From Nitrosopumilus sp. (GTDB lineage Archaea; Thermoproteota; Nitrososphaeria; Nitrososphaerales; Nitrosopumilaceae), in NCBI GenBank assembly GCA_965203315.1, contig OZ241857.1:1632001-1696000 (forward strand): 64,000 nt of DNA, written 5' to 3'. This document shows positions 11,404-23,828 of this stretch, piece after piece. The notes below the pieces were generated by a model. That model did no database searches, was not told the origin of the DNA, and saw only the letters and a program-made list of their open reading frames with translations. The translations under genes and the position numbers were made by a program. Every line of letters starts with the position of its first letter. The first letter of the stretch is position 1.

Positions 11404-11579
11404 GATCTCTTTCTAGCTCTTGTTCGCAGTACTGCCTTACAACATATGCAACGAGTATCGTTTATACACATAAAGATGTCACAAAAAGTACATCGCTTTT
11501 GTCCTATCTCGTATCTGATCTTATTTGGTGCAGGCTTGGCTTTATACATACAACATATGTTTCGACACGTTCTACCCAT
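11358..11579 (-). CDS. Small Cys-rich Zn-finger protein
   Basis: CRNIC, CTFC, CICC. Start overlaps the end of the second tfb, so probably co-transcribed. Confidence 0.65.
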   Translation of the reverse strand: MGRTCRNICCMYKAKPAPNKIRYEIGQKRCTFCDIFMCINDTRCICCKAVLRTRARKRSHIALTSDTTSRSRS

Positions 11580-12468
11580 CTAGATCATCTCCCACAACTT
11601 GACGAATCTCTCTTGTCCTATCTCGAATAGTTACAGCACTAATTCCTGACACATCTGCGATTTTTACTTGTGATATATTCTCTGCATTTATTATAGAAGC
11701 TAGATGTATAGCAGCAGCGGCCATCGCCACTGGATTCTTACTCGTTGTAATGTTCTTTCTTTGAGCAATATCTAGTATGTCTAGTGCACACCTCTCTGTC
11801 CTCTCTGATACCGGAATCGATTTTGCAATTCTTGGTACAAACTCGATTGGACTATATGCGACCGGCGTGATATCCATCTTTTTTATTATAAATCGATATA
11901 TCTTTTGTAGATTCTTCTTTTTGATGTTTCCTGCTGTTGCAATGTCTTGAAGTGTTCGTGGGGTATTTGTGAGTCTACATGTTATGTATATTGCAGCACA
12001 CAGTGCACTAGTAGTTGATCGTCCAGATAGTATCTTCTTTGCTACCATCTTTCTAAAAAAGTGCGCTGTCTGTTCAACTATTGGCTCTGGCAACCCAAGC
12101 CGACCTGCCATGCCATCTAGTAGAATGAATGCTTTCTGAAACGACTTGGTCGACAAGGCATATCTGCTGTTTCTGTCCCACATCCTTAAACGATAGAACA
12201 TTCGTTTATTCTCACTTGACAGATCCCTGCCAGTAACATCTTTGTCTTTTGACTCGATGATTGTAGACAGTCCCATGTCTACCATCTTTAACGAGATCTT
12301 TTGTCCAGTTCTAGATTCGTTATAATGTTCTCCAGTACTCTCAGGTCCTGTGTAAAACACTCTCTCTGAACAGACTGCACCACAATTACTACAAGCAATC
12401 TCGCCTGTATGATAATCTGTAACTATATTACTACTCTTGCAATCTGCCTGATGAACTATCTCTACCAA
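11572..12468 (-). CDS. tfb: Second, divergent transcription initiation factor B
   Basis: DYHTGEIACSNCG, DMGLSTII, RLRMWD, TPRTLQDI, GISAVTIRDR. B-reader EWR motif is absent. Confidence 0.9.
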   Translation of the reverse strand: MVEIVHQADCKSSNIVTDYHTGEIACSNCGAVCSERVFYTGPESTGEHYNESRTGQKISLKMVDMGLSTIIESKDKDVTGRDLSSENKRMFYRLRMWDRNSRYALSTKSFQKAFILLDGMAGRLGLPEPIVEQTAHFFRKMVAKKILSGRSTTSALCAAIYITCRLTNTPRTLQDIATAGNIKKKNLQKIYRFIIKKMDITPVAYSPIEFVPRIAKSIPVSERTERCALDILDIAQRKNITTSKNPVAMAAAAIHLASIINAENISQVKIADVSGISAVTIRDRTREIRQVVGDDLDG

Positions 12469-12519
12469 TATGTTGTATATTGTCTTTGAAATTATTTAAA
12501 GCGACAATCATATTCAAAC

Positions 12520-12558
12520 TAGTGCTAAACCAGGTATTTACAAAAACTTTTGGCACCA
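12520..12558. promoter_or_regulatory. Two degenerate operator half-sites upstream of the second tfb
   Basis: TAGTGCTAA (12520-12528) and TTGGCACCA (12550-12558), each one mismatch from TAGTGCCAA/TTGGCACTA. Another TAGTGCTAA lies at 12702. Confidence 0.55.
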
Positions 12559-12814
12559 TGTCGTAAATACATACATAGTTAAATTCTCAAATATGCGCTA
12601 AATTTTATGTCTTGTGTTTTGTTTACCATTTGTAGATTTTACATAAAACCTATGATCAACTTTGAGTCGTGTCAACCATTGAATCATACACGTCTGAACT
12701 CTAGTGCTAAAGATGTTAATTCAAATATCTTGATAGACATCTCTGCAAATTCGTTATCGTCTAGATATACTAGGCACGGTTTTAAATCATATTCAACTTG
12801 TACGTGATGTATAG

Positions 12815-13252
12815 ATGAGTTACTCTTTTCGACTACAATCTCACTCCTCACTCCCACAATCGGTATTGTACAAGATAAGTACAGATATTTCCAACTTTGA
12901 TAAAGTCATGCCTAATCACTTTCGTTCAATTGATATAGTAAAGTCTAGTGCCAACACGATCACAACCAAGGAGCATATCGTCTTTTTACATATTCCGATA
13001 ACTATCAAAGTACATCACAAGATTGTACCGCCGGATATGCATCAAGTAGATATCTCGAGTGGACCATTTTCTGGCACGCAGTTTGTTGAGCGCTATACAC
13101 CTCATCATACTGGAACAATTATAACTATAGATGTGACACTCCCTTGCTATCTACAACTCTTTAAACCTGTTAGATATCTCGTATCCAAAATAATGCTTAA
13201 TACCTTGGAGCAATTTGTTATGTCTGCAGAGATGTACGAGTCCAAGAGATAG
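12815..13252 (+). CDS. SRPBCC/polyketide-cyclase-like ligand-binding protein
   Basis: LYKISTDISNFDKVMPNHF and ISSGPFSGT...GTIITI pattern of START/SRPBCC folds. Confidence 0.7.
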   Translation: MSYSFRLQSHSSLPQSVLYKISTDISNFDKVMPNHFRSIDIVKSSANTITTKEHIVFLHIPITIKVHHKIVPPDMHQVDISSGPFSGTQFVERYTPHHTGTIITIDVTLPCYLQLFKPVRYLVSKIMLNTLEQFVMSAEMYESKR

Positions 13253-13270
13253 TTGGCACTATAGTGCAAA
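13253..13270. promoter_or_regulatory. Near-perfect 18-bp palindromic operator TTGGCACTATAGTGCAAA
   Basis: One mismatch from a perfect dyad. Lies just upstream of the TATA-like AATAAATAT (13282) of the FAD oxidoreductase gene. Confidence 0.7.
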
Positions 13271-13310
13271 TAGCTTTGCAGAATAAATATCTTGATTATG
13301 TATGCTGATC

Positions 13311-14645
13311 ATGGTTTATGATGTTTTAGTAATTGGTGCCGGAGTTGGCGGATTGTCATCAGCTGCACTGTTGGCAAGACAAGGTTACTCTGTCAAAGTC
13401 GTCGAGCGTGCAGAGAAGGTTGGCGGCAGAATTGCATCTACTGTGTATCGCAACCATATATTGGATAATGGTTTTCATATAATGCCTTTTTATAAAAAAT
13501 CAGCAATCTATTCTATACTGAAAGAACTTGGGATAGAGTCAAGGTTACGTCTTGCCAAAGTTGATAACATTGCATTTTATGATAACGAATTTTATCGATA
13601 TCCAAAAGGGATTACAGATATTCTTCGAATGTCGATGATTCCAATAAAAAGTAGATTTCAATTATTGCGTCTATTACTTCCACTCGCATTCTCTTCTGTA
13701 TCGAGAACAGAACAATGGGATGATACTCCTCTTACAAACATAACTCATAATCTAGATTCGGCCACATCAGCATTCTTTGAAGCAGTATGCATGCTGGCGT
13801 TTGCTGACACTGCAGAACACATATCTCTAGGCGAGTTTGCGCGTACTATAATTCGAGCAAATCCATTCAAAGGAGGTACTAGCGAATTTGCATATCCACA
13901 CTCTGGTGGATACGATGCTATTACTAACCTCTTGGCAGACTATATTCATGAAGCAGGAGGTGAGATAGAGACAAGTTCTAGAGTACAACAGGTGATGGTC
14001 AAAGATTCAAAAGCAGTTGGTATTAAATTTGATTCAGGCGAATCTTTAAACGCACGATCAATAGTGATATCGTTTCCTGCATATCTTGCTCTACATCAAC
14101 TCTTTGAACCAAATATTATAGATCCCAAGTTTGTCGCAAAGATAGATCAACTCAACAAAACTACATCTGTGGTCGAAGTTCATTTTGCGCTACGATCACA
14201 GCTCGACTCTAGACAAGTGATCTTTCCTGTAGGGGACTATGTCACTAAAGGAATATTCTTCATCTCAAATATCACACCAAAAGTATCTCCTCTTGGAGAG
14301 CATCTGATAATTGCAGGCACACCTGTACCGCCTTCAATCCCAAAGAATCCTAGCAAGGTTAGAGACGTTGTTGATAAAATGAAACAAGAGATATCAACTA
14401 TCTATCCAAAATTCAAATCTGAACTCATCTGGGAGATGCCAAAAGCATGGAGTCTAGTCGAGTCAGTAGTCAAGGAACCAGGCAAGGTGTGGTTATCCAA
14501 GATGCCACACCAGATATCTGGAATTGACGGTCTATTCTTTGTAGGTGATTCTACTGTAAGCTATGGGATTGGAACCGACTCTGCTGCGCACAGCTCTATA
14601 CTATGTCATCCAAAGATCAATACCTATCTGTCAAATACTTCGTAA
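13311..14645 (+). CDS. Phytoene-desaturase-like FAD-dependent oxidoreductase
   Basis: DVLVIGAGVGGL...VERAEKVGGR, LDNGFH, YPHSGG, GLFFVGD. Confidence 0.85.
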   Translation: MVYDVLVIGAGVGGLSSAALLARQGYSVKVVERAEKVGGRIASTVYRNHILDNGFHIMPFYKKSAIYSILKELGIESRLRLAKVDNIAFYDNEFYRYPKGITDILRMSMIPIKSRFQLLRLLLPLAFSSVSRTEQWDDTPLTNITHNLDSATSAFFEAVCMLAFADTAEHISLGEFARTIIRANPFKGGTSEFAYPHSGGYDAITNLLADYIHEAGGEIETSSRVQQVMVKDSKAVGIKFDSGESLNARSIVISFPAYLALHQLFEPNIIDPKFVAKIDQLNKTTSVVEVHFALRSQLDSRQVIFPVGDYVTKGIFFISNITPKVSPLGEHLIIAGTPVPPSIPKNPSKVRDVVDKMKQEISTIYPKFKSELIWEMPKAWSLVESVVKEPGKVWLSKMPHQISGIDGLFFVGDSTVSYGIGTDSAAHSSILCHPKINTYLSNTS

Positions 14646-15473
14646 GATCTTTGGAATCTCATCAAGCTCAACATCGCCTACGACACGTGCTGCAAGTTTA
14701 GGGATATCTTTGGTGTGCAATGCATATCCACCAACTAGGATCGGTTTGTTGTATGTGTCATTGATCTTTTTGATCAATCTCTGACCTGCTACTATGTTCT
14801 CAGGCAGAGTTATTGAAACAAAGACTACGTCAGGATCATTATCTCTAATAAAGTCTAGAATCGCTCTAGTTGGAATAGATGTTCCCATATTGTATACTCT
14901 ATATCCTCTTGTAGTTAGATACGTCTCTAGTACATCACATCCTAGATGGTGCTCTTCGCCCACCGGAACACAGATCATTATCTTCTTTTTATTCCCTTTA
15001 TTGGATACGCGACTCATGATTATCTTTATCAATGTCTGTGCAACGTTACTTGCTACATGCTCGGTGGCAATTCCAATCTTACCGTTGGCCCAATCCTGAC
15101 CTATATCCTTCATGACTGGTCGTAATATCTTGTCAAAAAATCCTGCCTCCGCAAAAGATTTCGCATACATGTCGTATATCTTTAAACACTCTTGAATATC
15201 TCCTTCTGTCAATTTCTGGTACAGATTCTTCTTTGATCTATTTGTTGCTCTATCTCTTTTTTTGATATCTTTTGGACTATGTGCTGCAAGAGCAGAGAGT
15301 ATCTTTGGGTCGTTGCGATATTGTACTGGAATATCATCTTGTTCAACTTGTGATGCTTTTCCGAGATACTTTACTATCTTTTGCTTTGACGTGTTCTGTT
15401 TAGAGTCCCAGACACTCTTTACCAAGTATAGATACCTGTCCGACTTTATCTTCTTGACTCTGATGTATACCAT
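14631..15473 (-). CDS. Cobalamin-binding CarH/LitR-like regulator with non-MerR N-terminal domain
   Basis: W-x9-EH (WANGKIGIATEH) cap motif; EEHHLG...VSIT...VGG B12 Rossmann motif; basic beta-rich N-terminus. Confidence 0.85.
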   Translation of the reverse strand: MVYIRVKKIKSDRYLYLVKSVWDSKQNTSKQKIVKYLGKASQVEQDDIPVQYRNDPKILSALAAHSPKDIKKRDRATNRSKKNLYQKLTEGDIQECLKIYDMYAKSFAEAGFFDKILRPVMKDIGQDWANGKIGIATEHVASNVAQTLIKIIMSRVSNKGNKKKIMICVPVGEEHHLGCDVLETYLTTRGYRVYNMGTSIPTRAILDFIRDNDPDVVFVSITLPENIVAGQRLIKKINDTYNKPILVGGYALHTKDIPKLAARVVGDVELDEIPKILRSI

Positions 15474-15504
15474 CTGTTTGATATGTCTGCTTTTGATATA
15501 TAAC

Positions 15505-15598
15505 TAATGCCAATTTTACAATATAGTGCCAACTTTTTGTTATTTACTTGGCACTATAAAGTATTTTTAACACTAGTTTAAATTCATAGTAGTGCCAT
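15505..15598. promoter_or_regulatory. Divergent promoter with five operator half-sites
   Basis: TAATGCCAA 15505, TAGTGCCAA 15524, TTGGCACTA 15548, TTAACACTA 15567, TAGTGCCAT 15590. They flank TATA-like elements near 15497 (minus strand) and 15577 (plus strand). Confidence 0.75.
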
Positions 15599-15607
15599 GA
15601 TATTCTA

Positions 15608-16945
15608 ATGAAAAAGACAGTTCTCGTAACAGGATGCACTGGCTTCATTGGTTCTAGACTGATATCACGGCTTGGAGAATTAGACTATAGTGTACTGGGA
15701 ATGAGTCGACGAGATCTAGATGATACAGATAACATTAGATATGTCAAAGCTGATGTCTTTGATCTAGACAACCTGATAGATGCCATGCGTGGAGTTGATG
15801 TAGCATATTATCTACTACATTCGATGGAAGGCAGTCGAGACAAGTGGCAACAGTTTGCAGGACGAGAGAGAATACAAGCACAGAACTTTCTCAAAGCAGC
15901 TACTATCTGTGGAGTAAAGAGGATCATATATCTTGGCGGTCTAGTTGATGACTCTCTAGATCTATCCCCTCACATGAAGAGTCGAATAGATGTTGGTAAA
16001 ATATTGGCATCTGGTGATATTCCTGTAACTGAACTTCGAGCATCTATAATTATTGGTGCACAGAGTGGCTCTTTTACAATGTTGCGTTATCTGGTAGAGC
16101 GACTATCTGTAATGATATGTCCTTCGTGGGTAAACTCTCTTGCGCAGCCAATCGCAGTTGGTGATGTAATCGAATATCTTGTTAGATGTATAGGGGTTGA
16201 TGAGACAGAAGGTAAGATATTTGAGATTGGTGGTCCAAAACAACTCACCTACAAGGATCTACTATATGCCTATGCCGAATACCTTGGCAAAAATATCTAC
16301 ATCTTGCAGATCCCATTTCTCACAACTAGACTCTCTTCGTACTGGGTTGATCTGATAACTCCTGTCAAAGCAGCACTTGCACGTCCACTAGTGGATAGTC
16401 TTGTACACGATACAGTTGTGACTAGTAGACCTATACACGATCTCATTCCTTTGAAACTCAAGTCATTTGAAGAAGCGATCGATATAGCAGTACATGAGAT
16501 GAGTGATTCCCCTCCACATCTCAAACTAACAGAGAAGACAAGTTTTTGTACAAATCAACGAATTCTTCAAGTGTCACTGGTCGCAATGATGATCATAGGT
16601 ACTACATACTATTGGCTAGATGACAGATCAGATGTCTTTCATGTACTGTGGCTGTTTGCTGCGTTCTTGTGGTATACATCTTGCATCTCTGCAATCTTTT
16701 TGATCCAAAAGAAGACTCGACTTGGATATGTTCTTGCTGGTATATTGTCGTGGATAACTCTGGCATTCTGGCTCTTTGACAACTATTATGTTGTATTTGG
16801 TGATACAGCTATTGCTGGTATGCCAAATGATGCGATGACTAGTCGTAACTTTGTCGGAATGTTTGTAGCGGCCATCTCTATCGTTGCATCACATAACCTA
16901 TTTCACAAGATTGTAAAGTATCAGTTTAAGGGAAGACAAATCTAG
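15608..16945 (+). CDS. YbjT-like NAD(P)-binding atypical SDR with C-terminal membrane domain
   Basis: VTGCTGFIG, AYYLLHSM, IIYLGGL, ELRASIIIG, QPIAVGDV, WVDLITPV; about four hydrophobic helices at the C-terminus. Confidence 0.85.
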   Translation: MKKTVLVTGCTGFIGSRLISRLGELDYSVLGMSRRDLDDTDNIRYVKADVFDLDNLIDAMRGVDVAYYLLHSMEGSRDKWQQFAGRERIQAQNFLKAATICGVKRIIYLGGLVDDSLDLSPHMKSRIDVGKILASGDIPVTELRASIIIGAQSGSFTMLRYLVERLSVMICPSWVNSLAQPIAVGDVIEYLVRCIGVDETEGKIFEIGGPKQLTYKDLLYAYAEYLGKNIYILQIPFLTTRLSSYWVDLITPVKAALARPLVDSLVHDTVVTSRPIHDLIPLKLKSFEEAIDIAVHEMSDSPPHLKLTEKTSFCTNQRILQVSLVAMMIIGTTYYWLDDRSDVFHVLWLFAAFLWYTSCISAIFLIQKKTRLGYVLAGILSWITLAFWLFDNYYVVFGDTAIAGMPNDAMTSRNFVGMFVAAISIVASHNLFHKIVKYQFKGRQI

Positions 16946-17119
16946 TACGTGATATTTTCATATATGACGAACCATGTCAATGATCTCTACAAGATAAATT
17001 TTCAGATGGTAATATGTGATTATATTACATACACTAGAATTTAGAACTTGATCTTTACAGATACTATGATTCTGATATAAACCTCAATAATTTTTATATC
17101 TGCCTTGCCGTTGTTTAAT

Positions 17120-17983
17120 ATGTCTAAATCACAAGAGAATACTGAATATATGTTGTGTAATGTATGCTTTGAACCATTTATGTATAATGATGTAAAATGG
17201 CTCCCAGAGAAGACAAAGTATTTTTCTAACAAAAATTTTAAACACGTACTTAAGGGTCTCGAAGATAAATCATTTGTTGAGTCATTTAAGAAAAAAAGAA
17301 AAGAGATGCTGGATTTGCAAAAGAGATTTCATAATGGTGATTATGACTCGATCGTAGATGACTTTATAAATATGCATAAAGTAGGTATAGAAATCGAAGA
17401 AATTAAGATGTACAAGATTCATATGTTGAATGTTGTTAAAAGACTGCGTAATAATTTAGATGATGACATGAAACGACATGTGGATAACCTTACGCAGTAT
17501 CCTGGACTAGTATTTGGCTGCTATGATTTTTCATATACCTCGAGGTGTCCACACTGCACGTTCCCAACAGTTCTAGTGTGGCGTGGACACGAGTCACTAA
17601 AGCGCTGTATAAAAATTAAGAGCAAGGATGACGACGACAAGAGTACATTTAGATGTATATCGTGCAGTACCGAATTGATTGCAGAGCACCATATTTGGAA
17701 ACGTGTTGATACTCCTAAAGGCATATATCTGGAAACCATCTGTCAAAAATGCAATAAAGCACAACCATATCCCTATGGTTTCAATTCCCTTTCAAATGTA
17801 GTCGAGAGTGGAGGACCACACTCTAGAATAGAATATGAAAAAATTCCTAAATGGATGATCACTGTACCTAGGTCGTATATTTGTGTTGATATTGGAGTAT
17901 TGGATTCTCAAATATACACTGTACCTGACAACAGAGAGATTGCGGACGCTGCATCGATTCTATTTACATTCTGGAAAAATTGA
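17120..17983 (+). CDS. Hypothetical protein with four CxxC pairs (family member 2, long subtype)
   Basis: Paralog of 1369-2277 (YPGLxFGCYxF, WxGHESLKR, KSTFRCxSC, ELIAEH, VESGGPH). Confidence 0.8.
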   Translation: MSKSQENTEYMLCNVCFEPFMYNDVKWLPEKTKYFSNKNFKHVLKGLEDKSFVESFKKKRKEMLDLQKRFHNGDYDSIVDDFINMHKVGIEIEEIKMYKIHMLNVVKRLRNNLDDDMKRHVDNLTQYPGLVFGCYDFSYTSRCPHCTFPTVLVWRGHESLKRCIKIKSKDDDDKSTFRCISCSTELIAEHHIWKRVDTPKGIYLETICQKCNKAQPYPYGFNSLSNVVESGGPHSRIEYEKIPKWMITVPRSYICVDIGVLDSQIYTVPDNREIADAASILFTFWKN

Positions 17984-18413
17984 CCCATGTGTTGATGATC
18001 TGAATGTGCTTGTTAGACTGTGGCAATTGCTTTTTGAGTCCCTCCTCAATGAAGTCTATTTTTAATATGATTGATCACAATAACTGATGTCAAGTTAGCA
18101 GAAAAGACAAGAGCCGATAAACCAGATATCTCTAGAGACATGAACATAACATTTTGATAGACAAACATGAAAGAGATATGTTAAAGAACATTTAGCAATT
18201 GTGATCGAAGAACTGGAATCCAAACTTGCATGATTCCAACATAATTACGTGATTGGTCATCTTGAGTTTTCTATCGCTGGGTATGTCAGGATCTATTGTA
18301 GTCTTGCTCAAATATAATCAATTATTATTTGGATTTATTGATTTGTCGTCAATCATATCTGAATTACTGTGCAGATATAGTATAAAAAACCTAATGAATA
18401 AAAGTATCTGCTA

Positions 18414-19568
18414 ATGGTCAATTCTGTTGATATTCGTCATGCTCTACTAGATCAATGGAATCGACAACTAGCTCAACATACTTTGTACCACTCAGACTCG
18501 TTAAGTGGTGCCAGTCCACCATCTGTATTTGTAGGATCGTATGGATACCCCAAAGTGCTTGTAGGACCTATGGTTCCGCCAACACACGGTGACACAAGTC
18601 TACTCGATAGTCCAGAACAATGGAAAGATATGTCGCTTGATGAGATCATAAACTTTAGACTCAATCTAGTTCGTGGTACGCAAAAGACGCCTATCGATCA
18701 AACAGATACTAGATACATACAAGAACTCCAAGTATTGAGCATGTCATCAAGACCTATCGATACTGATCTAGAATTTGATCAACCGATCAAGCCTATTGTA
18801 TCACTTGACGATCACAGTCCTGTATTTGGTCCAATGGGACAGATAACTAATGCTCGATTTGGTTCTGCATCTACACTTCGACCTATTGAGAGAGTCTTTT
18901 ACGATCGAGATCTTGGCGCAGCAGATGCTGTATTGAATCTATATCGAGCAGATGTCGAGATCTCTAGAATTCAACGTTGTTTTAGTATTGGTATGTTGGG
19001 TAAGAGTCGATCTCTAGTACCAACTCGTTGGAGTATTACTGCAACCGACGATATCATATCGAGATCTCTTGCTGATGATATCTTGGATCACTCTCTCATC
19101 GACTCTTGTATGGTGTTCACATATGCACATCTTGGAAACAAGTTTGTTGTAATACTGTTTCCGCACAGATGGCTCTATGAGATGATCGAGGCATGGTACT
19201 CTGATGGTGTATTGGGGTTTGGTTCTGATCATGAAGATGCACGTGGGATATCACATCCGCCAGCAATTGCTGGCGCATACTTTGCTGCTAAACTTGGCGT
19301 CTTGGAGTATCTTTCACATATACAGAGACAGGCTGGAGTCTTGATATTGCGTGAGATCAGTCCCGAGTATGCGCTTCCGGTCGGAGTATGGCAGATTCGT
19401 GAAGGTGTGCGGGCAGCTATGCAACAGATGCCCATAATGCTTGAATCCTTTGATGTTGCACTAGACGTGGCTACAAAGATGACAAACATTGCCACCCACG
19501 AGTGGCTTAAACACGGTCACATCTTCGAGATGCTTAGACAAAAGGTGTTGTCTGATTTTGTGATATAA
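18414..19568 (+). CDS. nreA: Archaeal DNA repair protein NreA (DUF650/DUF651)
   Basis: SPPSVFVGSYGYPKV, LVPTRWSITATDD, GAYFAAKLGVLEYL, PVGVWQIRE; C-terminal PIP box QKVLSDF. Confidence 0.9.
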   Translation: MVNSVDIRHALLDQWNRQLAQHTLYHSDSLSGASPPSVFVGSYGYPKVLVGPMVPPTHGDTSLLDSPEQWKDMSLDEIINFRLNLVRGTQKTPIDQTDTRYIQELQVLSMSSRPIDTDLEFDQPIKPIVSLDDHSPVFGPMGQITNARFGSASTLRPIERVFYDRDLGAADAVLNLYRADVEISRIQRCFSIGMLGKSRSLVPTRWSITATDDIISRSLADDILDHSLIDSCMVFTYAHLGNKFVVILFPHRWLYEMIEAWYSDGVLGFGSDHEDARGISHPPAIAGAYFAAKLGVLEYLSHIQRQAGVLILREISPEYALPVGVWQIREGVRAAMQQMPIMLESFDVALDVATKMTNIATHEWLKHGHIFEMLRQKVLSDFVI

Positions 19569-20073
19569 CTGATGTAAAGAGATCTCGCTGTGGTTCAGAG
19601 TACAGCAAAAAGTATGTTTGGTTGGCAAGATATGTTTTATTAAATTTGTAAATTATGGGGTTTATCGTAGCCAAGACTGTTCCTAACATTAACTCCTTAC
19701 GCTTGTATTTGTCTATCAATGCAATAAACGACATCTTTTCATTATGATCAAATTCATTCGAAAAATGTCCAAAGACGTGCATTATGACATTACTATGTGT
19801 CTTGATGGTTGGCTGTCGTTCTAACACTAGATGTAGATCTTTTTCGTATTTGGTTAGAATATTGTTCATCTCTCCATGTTTATAACTTGCAACTATTCTA
19901 CCAAGTGTCTTTAGTTTAGATTGGTCACGGGACATTATCAGATACTTGTTTCTCGCATGAAACTCTACTAGATGACGAATTCTAGCTAGTCTCTTAATGT
20001 GGTTGAATCTAGATGACACGAACTCGGTAATATCGCTATCTGATATCTCACTAGTTCCATTTGCTGACTCCAT
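19534..20073 (-). CDS. DUF1722 (YbgA C-terminal-like) protein
   Basis: LVEFHARNKYLIMS, HSNVIMHVFGHF, YLANQTYF. Confidence 0.85.
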   Translation of the reverse strand: MESANGTSEISDSDITEFVSSRFNHIKRLARIRHLVEFHARNKYLIMSRDQSKLKTLGRIVASYKHGEMNNILTKYEKDLHLVLERQPTIKTHSNVIMHVFGHFSNEFDHNEKMSFIALIDKYKRKELMLGTVLATINPIIYKFNKTYLANQTYFLLYSEPQRDLFTSVISQNQTTPFV

Positions 20074-20124
20074 CTATTTGATTTATGATCCTATGAATAT
20101 AAAGTCAGATCTTTTATATTTGAT

Positions 20125-20176
20125 TTAGCACCAGATTTAGCTAAATTTGTTGGCACTATATTGAAAATTACCACTA
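20125..20176. promoter_or_regulatory. Operator half-sites in the divergent promoter of DUF1722 and the secreted protein
   Basis: TTAGCACCA 20125, TTGGCACTA(TATTGAAAA) 20150, TTACCACTA 20168; the last abuts TATA TTATATAT at 20179. Confidence 0.65.
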
Positions 20177-20208
20177 GCTTATATATCAAATTAACACATG
20201 TCTATTCA

Positions 20209-21090
20209 ATGAAAGCACAACTACTAGTACTGACACTTGTCGTAGTGATATCTACAATATCTGTCGCACATGCCGAAGTTCCTTCGTGGATAAAGAGTAC
20301 AGCAGGATGGTGGGCAGATGGTTCTATATCGGATGACGAGTTTCTCAGTGGTATCTCTTACTTGGTGACAAATGGATTCATAGACGTTCCGACTAGTACG
20401 CAGACATCTACATCCGATACAGTTCCTTCATGGATCAAGACTAATGCAGGATGGTGGGCAGATGGTTCTATATCGGATGACGAGTTTCTCAGTGGTATAT
20501 CGTTTCTGATAGGCGCAGGACTCATTACTGTCGGTACTGATACAACTCAAGATATTGAAAGTGGTGATCAAACCGAACTAGAGTTACTTGAATCAGAACT
20601 TGAAGAGTGTGCCAAGATTACTAGAGCTGTTGATCGAATAGACTGTGAAAAGCCTATCAAAGACGAGATCAAACTCTACGAGTACAAACAAGATTCGACA
20701 AAGTTTGTTGTAGGTCCAATAGTCTACTATTGGAAAGGTCTTGGCTCTGACGGAAATAGTTTCGAGATAAGCTCAAGTGGTCAAGCACTATTGAACATTC
20801 GAATGTTGGCAGAGAATACCGCCTCTGAGAATGTAGCACTACACTGCACTAGCCCGTCTATATGCAACTATGATGTATGGGATGGCTCCAAGTCATTCAA
20901 ATACTCTGGGATGGACTTCACTAGCGGCATGATAGTCATCAAGCCAGGCGCTGCAAAAGAGTTTAACATTCTGTTTGGACCAAACATTGGATATGGTGGA
21001 ACTCAGTTCATATATGATCCATCAAAGAACTACCAGTTTCGGATCAATGAGAACTTTGGAAGTGTCAACATTGATCTGCCACTGGAGTAA
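20209..21090 (+). CDS. Secreted protein with two thaumarchaeal VPSWIKxxAGWWADG repeats
   Basis: Signal peptide MKAQLLVLTLVVVISTISVAHA; duplicated domain visible in the DNA. Start moved to ATG 20209. Confidence 0.8.
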   Translation: MKAQLLVLTLVVVISTISVAHAEVPSWIKSTAGWWADGSISDDEFLSGISYLVTNGFIDVPTSTQTSTSDTVPSWIKTNAGWWADGSISDDEFLSGISFLIGAGLITVGTDTTQDIESGDQTELELLESELEECAKITRAVDRIDCEKPIKDEIKLYEYKQDSTKFVVGPIVYYWKGLGSDGNSFEISSSGQALLNIRMLAENTASENVALHCTSPSICNYDVWDGSKSFKYSGMDFTSGMIVIKPGAAKEFNILFGPNIGYGGTQFIYDPSKNYQFRINENFGSVNIDLPLE

Positions 21091-21104
21091 TTTTTTTTCT
21101 TAAC

Positions 21105-22505
21105 TTATTCCATTCTTATCTCTTCTCGTTTTATCCATATGGTTCTATCATCCTGATCCATTATCTCCACTCCCATGTTAATGACTCTCTGTCGTATCTC
21201 ATCTGCCGCATCAAATTTGGCCGATTTCCTTAAATCTCTGCGTCTTGAAATCAATGCATTGATCTCGTTCTTCTGCTCTGTAGTTACTGTGGACAGTCTT
21301 AGTCCCAATATGTCGATCATCTCTTGAAACTTTGACATTGTAGATTTGATACTCTCTTTTAACACGCCTTTTGCATCGAGACGGTTTATCTCTCTGATCA
21401 TATCGAACAGTGACGAGATCGCAAGATGCGTATTTAGATCTGACTCTAACGCCGCATAAAACTCTAGATGCAACTCTGTAATCTTGTTGTCATATGTACC
21501 ATGTGTACTGTGGCCTATGTCGTCTGTTGTATCTTGTACATGAATCATGGTATAGTAACATGTCTCGATCTGTCTCCACTTTGTGAGGCTCTCTCTGAGT
21601 AATTCTGGTGTATAATCGATCGGTTTTGAATAATGTCCTGATAGACAGAACAGTCGTATTATGTTTGGACCCCAATCTATCATGGCTTGACTGATCGATC
21701 TGATATTTCCAAGTGACTTTGACATCTTTGTACCCTGTATGGTTACCATCCCTACATGTAGCCAAATCTTTGCCATTGGGGTACTAGTGCATGACTCTGA
21801 TTGGGCGATCTCGTTCTCATGATGTGGGAATATCAGATCCCTTCCTCCTCCATGTATGTCAAAACTATCCCCCAAGTACTTGGCACTCATAGCAGAACAT
21901 TCGATATGCCAACCTGGTCTTCCCTTGCCCCAAGGACTATTCCAAGAAGGTTCTGTATCAGTAAACTTCCATACGGCAAAGTCTAGTGGATCTGACTTTT
22001 TCTCATCTATCTGAATTCTTGCACCTGCCTTTAGCTCATCGATCTTCTTCTTTGATAGTTTACCATATTCGGCAAATTTGGCAACTGCAAAATAGATTCC
22101 ATTATCTGTTACATATGCTGTATTGTTCTGTATCAGAGCTCCAACTAGACGTATGATATCTGCAATATGTTCAGTTGCTTTTGGGTACGATGTCGCACGC
22201 AATATGTTCAGCTTGTCTGCATCTACAAAGTATTGATCGATATATCTAGTACTGATCTCTTTGGCACTCATTCCTTCAGTATCTGCTCGTGATATTATCT
22301 TGTCATCTACATCGGTAAAGTTTTGAATCATCACTACTTTGACCCCCTTTGACTCTAGATATCGTCGCAATACATCAAAGACTATGATAGTTCTTGCATG
22401 ACCAATATGTGACTCGTCATATACGGTAACACCACATAGATAGATCTTGACCGTCTCTTGTTCTAAAATTATCTGTGTATCCGATAATGTGTCATGTAGT
22501 TTCAT
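21105..22505 (-). CDS. cysS: Cysteinyl-tRNA synthetase
   Basis: [26 protein letters not shown]. Confidence 0.97.
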
Positions 22506-23290
22506 TTGTGATCCCTTGGGTCTTGCGGTATGATTCGTTTGTGATGTGTGTTCTTGTTTAGTGATATGATCTGCTGTATCGTACTAGAATCTATCTGTGT
22601 TGTTTTTGCAATCTCTGATACATCCATACCTTTTTCCATGCAATATATGATCGAGTCGATCTCTTCATACGTTGCACCAATCTCATCTTGAGCGTCATGA
22701 TCGGACCATAGATGTGGGCTACTCTTCTTTGAGATGATCTCTGTCGGTACTCCTAGATACTTTGCAATCTCTCTTATCTGAAGTTTATACATCGACGAGA
22801 TTGGTACAATGTCTGCTGCTCCATCACCAAACTTTGTAAAGTATCCCAACATGTATTCACTCTTGTCGCTAGTTCCCAAAACTAGATATCCTTTTACATT
22901 TGCATAATAGTATAGAATATTTGCTCGCACCCGTGCCCTTAGATTTCCTTTGGCTCGTTTGTTTGGCTCTATGTACATAGAATATTCATTTACTATTGGT
23001 TTGATATCGATTAACTTGTATGCTATGCCTGTCAACGCAACTACTTTGAGCGCGTCTCTTGTCTCTTGTTCTGGAGTGATATCGGTATCTGGCATTACTA
23101 TGCCTAACGCCTTGTTTCCAAGTTCTTTACATAGATATGCAACAACAGACGAGTCTATTCCACCACTGAGTCCAAAGATCACACCTTGAGAGTCTTGATG
23201 TGCCATCTCTTTTATGATGCCGTCTCTAATCTCTGATACGATCTGTTTATAGTCTTGATTCTTTATGTTGTCGATTATAGTTTGATTCAA
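22502..23290 (-). CDS. nadE: NH3-dependent NAD+ synthetase
   Basis: GLSGGIDS, GNLRARVR, GYFTKFGDG. Start probably TTG 23290 rather than the longer ORF start. Confidence 0.92.
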   Translation of the reverse strand: MNQTIIDNIKNQDYKQIVSEIRDGIIKEMAHQDSQGVIFGLSGGIDSSVVAYLCKELGNKALGIVMPDTDITPEQETRDALKVVALTGIAYKLIDIKPIVNEYSMYIEPNKRAKGNLRARVRANILYYYANVKGYLVLGTSDKSEYMLGYFTKFGDGAADIVPISSMYKLQIREIAKYLGVPTEIISKKSSPHLWSDHDAQDEIGATYEEIDSIIYCMEKGMDVSEIAKTTQIDSSTIQQIISLNKNTHHKRIIPQDPRDHK

Positions 23291-23525
23291 CTGTTGGTAT
23301 GAATCTGCTTGGGAATTAAAAAGTTGTACTGCATCATGTACATCGTACTGTACATCGTCTGTACATTGTATAATGTACATCGTATATTCACGTGTATAGA
23401 GGGGGACACTATTGATACAAAAAACAAGATAACGTCGATCATTACTATGGAAACCTAATATCATGCTCGTATAATGTCGTATGTGTCAAGTTGTATGTCT
23501 TGTACTATGAATCATGTACGATAAA

Positions 23526-23828
23526 TCAAATGTCCACATAGATCCCATCGTCTCTTGTCTCTATTGGATATGTTGTCAGTTTGACATCTTTGAGATAATC
23601 GACCAACTCGCCGGTTTTAATGTTATAGTGCCAAAAGTGTAATGGACACTCTACTATGTTGCCGTCTAGTTTTCCAGGCGCAATTGAACCATCTTGATGA
23701 ACACAGAGATCGTCTAGTGCGTGATATCCATCTTGATTGAATATGGCGATCTGTTTGTCATCGATCTTGAAAGATTTACCTTTTCCTGATGCAATATCGC
23801 CCTTTTCGGCAACCTTTTTCCATGCCAT
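23526..23828 (-). CDS. Rieske [2Fe-2S] ferredoxin
   Basis: CVH...CPLH Rieske motifs, 100 aa. Confidence 0.92.
   Translation of the reverse strand: MAWKKVAEKGDIASGKGKSFKIDDKQIAIFNQDGYHALDDLCVHQDGSIAPGKLDGNIVECPLHFWHYNIKTGELVDYLKDVKLTTYPIETRDDGIYVDI

Follow-up and report, generated by a model that had tools for sequence, protein, structure and literature searches.

How could an archaeon that lives by oxidizing ammonia switch its genes in response to light? Ammonia-oxidizing archaea are among the most abundant microbes of the ocean and light inhibits their activity, and our literature search returned no light sensor or light-responsive regulator described for them. The question is raised by one gene of Nitrosopumilus sp. 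(assembly GCA_965203315.1), situated in a stretch of 64,000 nucleotides of contig OZ241857.1 (positions 1,632,001-1,696,000 of the forward strand) to which we refer as the window. The gene (P0001; 14631..15473 on the minus strand, stop codon included) encodes a protein of 280 amino acids (aa), here called the regulator. A previous examination of the letters, below termed the sequence-only reading, had quoted this open reading frame (ORF) together with its N-terminal sequence, both of which were recovered at these positions from the ORF list and the translation, and had suggested a light-sensing archaeal transcription factor. The archaeal setting is supported by genes for transcription factor B (TFB, TFIIB) and Nre in the vicinity and by homologues named Nitrosopumilus or Nitrosarchaeum. 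We consider it strongly possible that the regulator is the first gene switch of these archaea found to respond to light, because it joins a CarH-type B12 module to a domain shared with IS1634 transposases and because conserved repeats are present at its own and neighbouring promoters.

Judged from the sequence and a structural model, the C-terminal 200 residues form a cobalamin-binding domain of the CarH type, for which adenosylcobalamin (AdoCbl) is the predicted cofactor. The domain consists of a four-helix-bundle subdomain (residues 83-154; 15012..15227, minus strand) containing G125xxW128 and E138H139, and of a Rossmann-type cobalamin-binding subdomain (residues 162-280; 14634..14990, minus strand) containing G172EEH175, G197xxxP201, S220xT222 and G248G249. 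The former was matched by Pfam B12-binding_2 (residues 83-151, E 3.4e-9) and the latter by Pfam B12-binding (residues 165-253, E 7.3e-12), both above the curated cut-off. The motif W128-x9-E138-H139, which reads WANGKIGIATEH in the regulator, lies inside the B12-binding_2 domain, and the second motif runs as E173-x-H175-x-x-G178, x41, S220-x-T222, x25, G248-G249. In the relevant passage of PMC9304148, CarH proteins are defined by Wx9EH together with the Rossmann-module pattern D/ExHx2G/P-x41-SxT/V-x22-27-GG, and the regulator agrees with both patterns. Thus, the pair of motifs claimed in the sequence-only reading is present with the spacing of the CarH definition, and the location of the motifs within significant Pfam domains argues against chance strings.

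A more specific signature for the response to light, GxxW/EH/GxxH/GxxxP, is described in the main text of PMC11796333 as derived and validated by spectroscopy and a crystal structure. All four elements are present in the regulator, as GQDW, EH, GEEH and GTSIP. Among 44 full-length family members, GxxW was retained in 38, EH in 41, GxxH in 42 and GxxxP in 13; the tryptophan itself is kept in 38, and H175 in all 44. By homology, His175 is predicted to be the lower axial cobalt ligand. In CarH, the W/EH region of the four-helix bundle forms the cap above the upper adenosyl ligand. The genome encodes a corrinoid adenosyltransferase of the PduO type (E 1.9e-54), and AdoCbl can therefore be produced in the organism.

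Structural comparison placed the module among known photoreceptors. The AlphaFold model of the regulator, built from a 103-row alignment, has a mean predicted local distance difference test (pLDDT) score of 92.8, and a Foldseek search with it against the PDB gave 147 matches at E <= 0.001 (best E 6.9e-13). The best 50 of these 147 were all B12 photoreceptors, comprising photocobilins, the B12 domain of a Chloracidobacterium MerR-family protein, TtCarH in the dark and light states, and LitR, with photocobilin 8j2w and the CtMerR B12 domain 8jbs as the closest structures. A sequence search of the PDB also had photocobilin 8j2w (9.1e-13) and the TtCarH B12 domain (1.8e-11) as its best chains, followed further down by methionine synthase (1.9e-10) and corrinoid proteins (1e-7). 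The best NCBIfam model was CarH (NF052513, E 3.5e-16), covering residues 80-269 only. The CarH-type domain of the sequence-only reading is upheld by the motifs, by this family ranking and by the photoreceptors among the best 50 Foldseek matches. Prediction of a homodimer from two copies gave a score of 0.02 against a mark of 0.42 and was not used either way.

The automatic names of the homologues disagree. They include cobalamin B12-binding domain-containing protein, histidine kinase, MtbC1, response regulator and methionine synthase, and one homologue carries the name 'MerR family ... light-induced transcriptional regulator'. Some of these annotations, such as the JGI name 'methanogenic corrinoid protein MtbC1', correspond to a different reading, in which the protein is a corrinoid carrier of a methyltransferase system, similar to MtbC, MtaC or MtgC. 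The NCBIfam models of these three carriers do match, at 25-44 bits against cut-offs of 203-450, and both the corrinoid-carrier and the methionine-synthase models score below CarH. The corrinoid proteins rank under the photoreceptors in the PDB sequence search, and none is found among the best 50 of the 147 Foldseek matches; the sequence-only reading had named a best structural match to methyltransferase corrinoid proteins as evidence against a photoreceptor, and photoreceptors were found instead. No methyltransferase gene is located nearby, the neighbours encoding a FAD (flavin adenine dinucleotide) oxidase, a membrane protein of the short-chain dehydrogenase (SDR) type and TFB, and neither the conserved N-terminal domain nor the operator described below has a place in such a system. 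We regard a corrinoid carrier as very improbable.

The N-terminal domain, which is presumed to bind DNA, occupies residues 1-55 (15309..15473, minus strand) and consists of three antiparallel strands and a conserved DIPxxYR turn. In the AlphaFold models, both of the full protein and of residues 1-65 alone (pLDDT 93.4), the strands span residues 2-9, 12-23 and 28-39 and are followed by short helices. The first 80 residues contain 19 lysines and arginines as compared to 8 aspartates and glutamates, and the 'basic, beta-rich' N-terminus of the sequence-only reading is thus seen in both composition and model. That this terminus is not of the MerR type also agrees with the three-stranded sheet and with Pfam, which matched neither MerR nor any other family to residues 1-86 at E <= 10; when the N-termini of the 44 family members were scanned singly, no family was found at E <= 0.1. 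Seven positions (R5, Y14, Y16, V18, Q31, G38 and P49) are invariant in all 44 members, which diverge to 22% overall identity, and another four (K7, W22, Y36 and L37) are nearly invariant. An ESM Atlas search with residues 1-70 had a best score of 0.81, which is chance level. In a wide VIA search, unrelated structures scored as well as the ribosomal PSRP-3-like and PC4-like ones, and no fold was assigned.

The sequence-only reading had noted a resemblance of this domain to the N-termini of IS1634-type transposases, and the resemblance proved to be homology. An IS1634 transposase from the same phylum (L034; NF033559, 377 bits) starts with a similar string. Using hhalign, a 15-row alignment of the N-domain matched this transposase alone at 50% (E 1.6e-4) and an alignment of 20 IS1634 transposases at 89.1% (E 2.2e-6), over 42 columns and from first residue to first residue, with the R-x-K, Y, Q and LG positions coinciding. 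Independently, a profile made from the 15-row alignment retrieved IS1634 transposases from Thermoplasmatota. Matches were obtained in 37 of 201 genomes of this phylum. Two of them are B12 fusions (E 2.4e-30 and 4.4e-25), and many others are frames of 510-565 aa, of which one genome often has several. Twelve of the frames were classified using NCBIfam and Pfam. Six of eight long frames (453-530 aa) scored above the IS1634 cut-off, one below it, and one had no match; a frame of 321 aa is a fusion of the N-domain to a Fic domain, and three frames of 111-120 aa contain the N-domain and no other family. By sequence comparison, the regulator thus has this domain in common with IS1634 transposases, and at least four architectures contain it. 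The Fic-fusion and stand-alone loci are L067 (658-1620, minus strand), L068 (1501-2463, plus strand), L063, L064 and L065.

The N-terminal part of a transposase usually reads the ends of the element, and it is from this position in the transposases that we infer a DNA-binding role for the N-domain. Beyond the first approximately 40 residues, which are homologous N-end to N-end, the regulator differs from IS1634 transposases (NF033559) in length, 280 aa as compared to about 510-570 aa, and in having no DDE domain; Pfam detected neither DDE_Tnp_1 nor a DDE catalytic domain in it. It is also single-copy and has a conserved chromosomal position.

The homology alone might also be explained by a functionless, decaying IS1634 remnant that was fused by accident to a B12 domain. 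Such a remnant would not be expected to persist as it does here. The N-domain is present once in the genome of the window, the DDE domain is missing, no IS1634 transposase was found in this genome, and among 151 genomes of the phylum a single one was found to encode such transposases. The intact frame is conserved in thousands of homologues from two archaeal phyla. A word-indexed protein search gave 1676 matches, the best 120 of which are all 280-285 aa in length with 66-79% identity over the full length and, where named, belong to Nitrosopumilus or Nitrosarchaeum. An exhaustive search of representatives identified 47 clusters at E <= 1e-30, in which the identity of full-length members went as low as 25%. 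We attach next to no probability to the remnant.

The 134-bp region between the regulator gene and its divergent neighbour contains four copies of TARTGCCA, and the window contains 13 as compared to 3.4 expected, a number not reached in any shuffle. The operator consists of direct repeats of TTRGCAYTAG that are placed 19 bp apart and abut the TATA box. At the regulator promoter (15497..15532, minus strand), TTGGCACTAT (15523-15532) is followed by 9 nt, TTGGCATTAG (15504-15513), the TATA box TTATATA (15497-15503), 23 nt and the ATG. The divergent promoter mirrors this arrangement on the plus strand (15548..15597), with TTGGCACTAT (15548-15557), 9 nt, TTAACACTAG (15567-15576), TTTAAAT (15577-15583), 24 nt and the ATG, and with an extra partial copy in inverted orientation, TAGTGCCA (15590-15597), downstream of the TATA box and before the ATG. 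A third operator (20150..20185, plus strand) consists of TTGGCACTAT (20150-20159), TTACCACTAG (20168-20177) and TTATATA (20179-20185), with the ATG 23 nt further on; an additional site, TTAGCACCAG, is located near it at 20125-20134.

The operator architecture is conserved. Of the 24 orthologous loci that we identified in 61 genomes of the taxonomic family, 15 have the pair of repeats, 19-20 bp apart from start to start and located at about -57/-38 (or -45/-25) relative to the start codon, and one more has a single site. Mirrored sites also occur in orthologous loci, and the pair is retained even in a GC-rich genome in which the surrounding DNA is unrelated. The scoring of these loci is descriptive only, as explained below, and the independent tests are the third promoter in the genome pair scan, a search with a strict pattern and a tally of the genes downstream. 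When the genome of 2.47 Mb was scanned for pairs, only three strong ones were obtained, with scores of 30.7 (regulator), 27.2 (20150-20177) and 26.5 (SDR gene). All three precede a TATA box and a gene start, while the next pair (21.7) lacks a TATA box, and the pair scoring 27.2 was absent from the training set of the matrix. The genome has 51 single sites scoring >= 14, nine of which fall in an 11-kb part of the window (12519-23625). The site at 23625 lies within a Rieske gene and was set aside as a probable chance match.

The strict pattern, TTRGCACTA-N9-11-TWRSCAYTA, was searched in the 61 genomes with the reversed pattern as a control, and gave 23 matches as compared to 2 for the control. 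Matches were found in 15 of the 24 genomes with the regulator versus 2 of the 37 without it. Put differently, only two of the 17 genomes with a match lack the regulator, namely G038, which has a pseudogene, and G055, in which the match has no TATA box. In the tally of downstream genes, nine matches stand before the regulator, one before its pseudogene and eight before orthologues (approximately 295 aa) of the gene behind the third operator, here called SecRep. One more precedes a 118-aa protein without a family, and the remaining four are not followed by an ORF of 60 aa in the next 250 nt. The idea of a transcription factor has thus gained evidence since the sequence-only reading, in the form of a conserved, repeated operator in 15490-15605 and of what appears to be a small, conserved regulon.

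Two of the matches that precede no such ORF (L049 and L050; G027:C2:475338 and G051:C3:39238) are perfect pairs with a TATA box. The sequence downstream of them is conserved between both genomes, and a short peptide or a small RNA may therefore be encoded there. At five loci (L011, L012, L014, L015 and L021), the 200 nt that precede the regulator gene hold, immediately before it and in the same orientation, an ORF of approximately 60 aa with a zinc ribbon (CxxC...CxxC), which takes the place of the operator.

The co-occurrence of repeats and gene bears on whether the regulator itself touches DNA. It might instead be a B12 light sensor that works through another regulator, or through the adjacent TFB paralogue, with a different protein on the repeats. 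A precedent is AerR of Rhodobacter, a B12-binding antirepressor of CrtJ, to which the regulator has a weak match in the PDB sequence search (7te2, E 0.0044). Both are B12-domain light sensors acting on transcription, the light role of the regulator being a prediction, and such a partner would explain why the N-domain has no recognized DNA-binding fold in the PDB and why a TFB paralogue is linked to the regulator in three genomes. AerR, however, has no DNA-reading domain and depends on its partner, whereas the N-domain of the regulator and the co-occurring operator point to direct binding. The N-domain is basic and holds the N-terminal position of IS1634 transposases, the repeats lie on the regulator's own promoter, and one of the two genomes that have repeats without the gene has its pseudogene. 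We thus find an AerR-like partner quite unlikely, and consider it likely that the regulator is the factor that acts at the repeats.

The genes behind the operators define a short list of candidate targets. The divergent SDR-membrane gene (15608..16945, plus strand) encodes 445 aa, with Pfam Epimerase, NAD_binding_10 and NmrA matches on residues 1-140 and a C-terminal part that appears hydrophobic when the sequence is read by eye, and is the divergent neighbour of the regulator in 8 of the 24 loci. The SecRep gene (20209..21090, plus strand; from the translation), situated 4.7 kb from the regulator locus behind the third operator, encodes 293 aa. Inspection by eye suggests a signal-peptide-like start and two N-terminal repeats, PSWIKxxAGWWADGSISDDEF. 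Pfam assigned no family to SecRep, and an Atlas search with its C-terminal part retrieved only uncharacterized Nitrososphaerota clusters. SecRep orthologues are placed behind the same operator in seven other genomes, and in G033, G014 and G040 a single operator precedes both SecRep and the regulator, which point in the same direction. Of the 61 genomes, 24 have a full-length orthologue (E < 1e-60), and 20 of these carry the regulator. In the four genomes with the regulator but no strong match, a weaker SecRep-like gene lies at most 4 kb from the regulator. Overall, a SecRep or SecRep-like gene is located <= 5 kb from the regulator in 19 of 24 genomes.

The repeat of SecRep is itself widespread. 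The form PxWIKxxAGWWAxGxIxDxEF had hundreds of matches at the start of differing frames, mostly of 200-700 aa, in every one of the 61 genomes, and no Pfam family covers it; it may be a surface-anchoring or sorting module.

Convergent to the regulator gene is a gene for a FAD-dependent protein of 447 aa (13302..14645, plus strand), similar to amine oxidases and phytoene desaturases (Pfam Amino_oxidase, E 1.8e-33; NCBIfam best PRK07233, HpnE and the CrtI family, all below cut-off). It adjoins the regulator in 4 of the 24 loci, and in the window the 3' ends of the two genes share 15 bases (14631-14645). A single strong site, TTGGCACTAT (13253..13262, plus strand), precedes it by approximately 40 nt and is followed by AATAAATA. 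Since a strong second site is missing, the FAD oxidase is a tentative target. A gene for a TFB paralogue (11572..12468, minus strand; Pfam TFIIB, E 2.7e-30, and Zn_Ribbon_TF), starting with TTG at 12468, is also preceded by a single site. Its promoter (12493..12528, minus strand) consists of TTAGCACTAG (12519-12528), 18 nt, the TATA box TTTAAATA (12493-12500), approximately 25 nt and the TTG. In L005 and L006, TFB is directly downstream of the regulator gene, and the same layout of site, N17-19 and TATA box is found before a small zinc-ribbon ORF and TFB (L005 2330-2610; L006 2330-2660). This single-site geometry is unlike that of the repressor-like pairs and hints at a cascade from the regulator to TFB, and on these sequence features the TFB paralogue is a possible member of the regulon.

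Across genomes, the genes for the regulator, SecRep, the SDR-membrane protein, the FAD oxidase and DUF1722 cluster in shuffled orders. The stand-alone DUF1722 gene of the window (19534..20073, minus strand; Pfam DUF1722, E 1.3e-31) is divergent from SecRep across the third operator, and the order in G030 is FAD oxidase, regulator, DUF1722 and then divergent SecRep. A photolyase linked to the locus was also considered and rejected, as the genome has no gene of the FAD_binding_7 type. In bacteria, the portion of PMC9758184 on LitR regions lists a short-chain dehydrogenase, a FAD-dependent oxidoreductase and a photolyase, and a passage in PMC11417400 states that DUF1722 genes are often part of LitR-controlled light operons. 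The SDR, FAD oxidoreductase and DUF1722 genes of the regions described there are thus paralleled here, the likeness being one of gene kinds.

Taken together, these data suggest a one-component, AdoCbl-dependent transcription factor similar to CarH and LitR, with another DNA-reading head. Loaded with AdoCbl in the dark, the C-terminal module, with the bundle capping the adenosyl group and His175 as the lower ligand, would hold an oligomer together, and two or more of the oligomer's N-domains would sit on the TTRGCAYTAG repeats spaced 19 bp apart. As the promoter-proximal repeat ends at the TATA box, where the B recognition element (BRE) lies, the bound protein would be expected to hinder the entry of TATA-binding protein and TFB and thereby to repress transcription. 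The repressed genes would be the regulator itself, the divergent SDR-membrane gene and SecRep, and probably also the FAD oxidase and the TFB paralogue. Cleavage of the Co-C bond by light would then break up the oligomer and free the promoters. The distance of 23-25 nt from the TATA box to the start codon suggests leaderless transcripts. That the protein binds AdoCbl and is photolysed, binds the repeats and represses is proposed by analogy with the bacterial systems, and we give the mechanism as a whole, in which an autoregulated repressor depends on AdoCbl, is released by light and governs a small regulon, a somewhat better than even chance.

Several observations weigh against this mechanism. 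The score of the regulator for CarH NF052513 is 59.3 bits against a cut-off of 400, as only the B12 part matches. The glycine of GxxxP is retained in only 13 of the 44 family members. The residue after Trp128 is an alanine, and a histidine occupies this position in 6 of the 44; in TtCarH, the histidine after the tryptophan ligates cobalt following light. No solved structure resembles the isolated N-domain convincingly (Foldseek PDB best E 0.67; VIA best Z 4.5), and no documented DNA-binding role of the IS1634 N-terminus was found in the literature search. The position matrix was built from the sites that were later scored in the orthologous loci, which is why that scoring is descriptive only. 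A full-length homologue (E <= 3e-64) is present in only 24 of the 61 genomes, the remaining matches being to the B12 domain of a methionine-synthase-like frame of approximately 840 aa. The regulator was not found in the three other sampled genomes of the genus, one of which (G038) keeps a remnant with TAG and TAA stops. Finally, the genome has no photolyase-type FAD_binding_7 domain and the candidate targets have no known photoprotective role.

Some of these observations would be explained if the protein bound the repeats and reported the supply of AdoCbl instead of light, as a protein substitute for a B12 riboswitch. The domain make-up and the operator fit this function equally well, and neither the missing photolyase-type domain nor the absence of the histidine of the TtCarH light state would then be surprising. 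However, no gene for cobalamin synthesis, salvage or a B12-dependent function is linked to an operator, and supply would be a weak signal in an organism that makes its own AdoCbl. The Wx9EH cap and the full light signature are moreover retained, and the nearest structures, including the best 50 of the 147 Foldseek matches, are photoreceptors. We therefore judge a supply sensor unlikely, and favour the light-released repressor.

The CarH and LitR proteins of Thermus thermophilus, Myxococcus xanthus and Bacillus megaterium are AdoCbl-dependent, light-released repressors with the same B12 module of two subdomains, containing Wx9EH and the His-on motif. The B12 domain of TtCarH and that of the regulator have approximately 20% identity and a TM of about 0.6-0.85. 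The single-protein design, with sensor and regulator in one chain and the presumed DNA head at the N-terminus, is also shared, as is the direct-repeat operator overlapping the promoters of the protein's own and neighbouring genes, which is a candidate operator in the present case. The differences concern the head, a MerR winged helix in CarH and LitR and a three-stranded sheet domain shared with IS1634 transposases here; the archaeal host with its TATA/BRE promoters; the repeats, of 10 bp with a period of 19 bp; the missing histidine after the tryptophan; and the absence of carotenoid and photolyase genes from the candidate regulon. Because the CarH model scores far below its cut-off and the MerR head is missing, the regulator is not a member of the CarH family, yet it probably works like one, by analogy.

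Other light-responsive B12 proteins include CtMerR, the photocobilins and fusions to HTH (helix-turn-helix), GGDEF, GAF and MEDS domains, as described in parts of PMC11796333 and PMC10979010. The full GxxW/EH/GxxH/GxxxP signature is shared with the proteins mined by signature in the former, as its main text describes them, and the regulator has neither a bilin-binding nor an enzymatic output domain. The main text of PMC11796333 does not list an output of the N-domain type and contains the words 'archaea' and 'transposase' 0 times, although its network and Fig. S9 may include the family. No description of this regulator family was found in our literature search. The novelty would lie in the DNA head of a candidate B12 photoreceptor-regulator, in the domain of life in which it occurs, and in its defined operator and regulon. 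It is a concrete candidate, consisting of a defined protein, a 10-bp operator with a fixed promoter geometry and a short list of target genes.

In its widest form, the proposal would describe the first photoreceptor and light-controlled transcription circuit of ammonia-oxidizing archaea, in which a green/blue AdoCbl switch with a head domesticated from IS1634 represses a conserved envelope and redox module (SecRep, SDR-membrane protein, FAD oxidase and DUF1722) in the dark and controls a dedicated TFB paralogue, and would include a new class of archaeal DNA-binding domain. We hold this sum of claims tentatively, at somewhat less than an even chance. If it is true, B12 photoreception extends to archaea, a B12 light module can drive a DNA-binding domain that is not of the HTH type, and the DNA-binding head of a transposase has been recruited as a cellular regulator. 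The control of TFB would then be an archaeal counterpart of the bacterial cascade from LitR to the sigma factor LitS, and the N-domain, which in Thermoplasmatota also occurs fused to Fic or on its own, would represent a new class of sequence-specific archaeal DNA-binding domain. A compact AdoCbl switch acting on TATA/BRE promoters might also serve as a light-control tool for archaeal genetics.

A few minor observations were made at related loci. In G038, the operator is kept both at the regulator pseudogene (L028/L047, G038:C1:1500066-1500450) and before an intact SecRep. Upstream of a homologue from Thermoplasmatota (L060, 4925-4975), TAGTGCC and AAGTGCC are located 21 bp apart in an orientation opposite to that of the thaumarchaeal repeats, which may be due to chance, and the only notable neighbour at that locus is a gene for a GAF-PAS histidine kinase of 1033 aa that ends just upstream. 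In the window, an archaeal Nre gene (Nre_N and Nre_C, of a family associated with DNA repair) lies beside the DUF1722 gene (18414-20073), and the Nre/SecRep neighbourhood is retained in G038.

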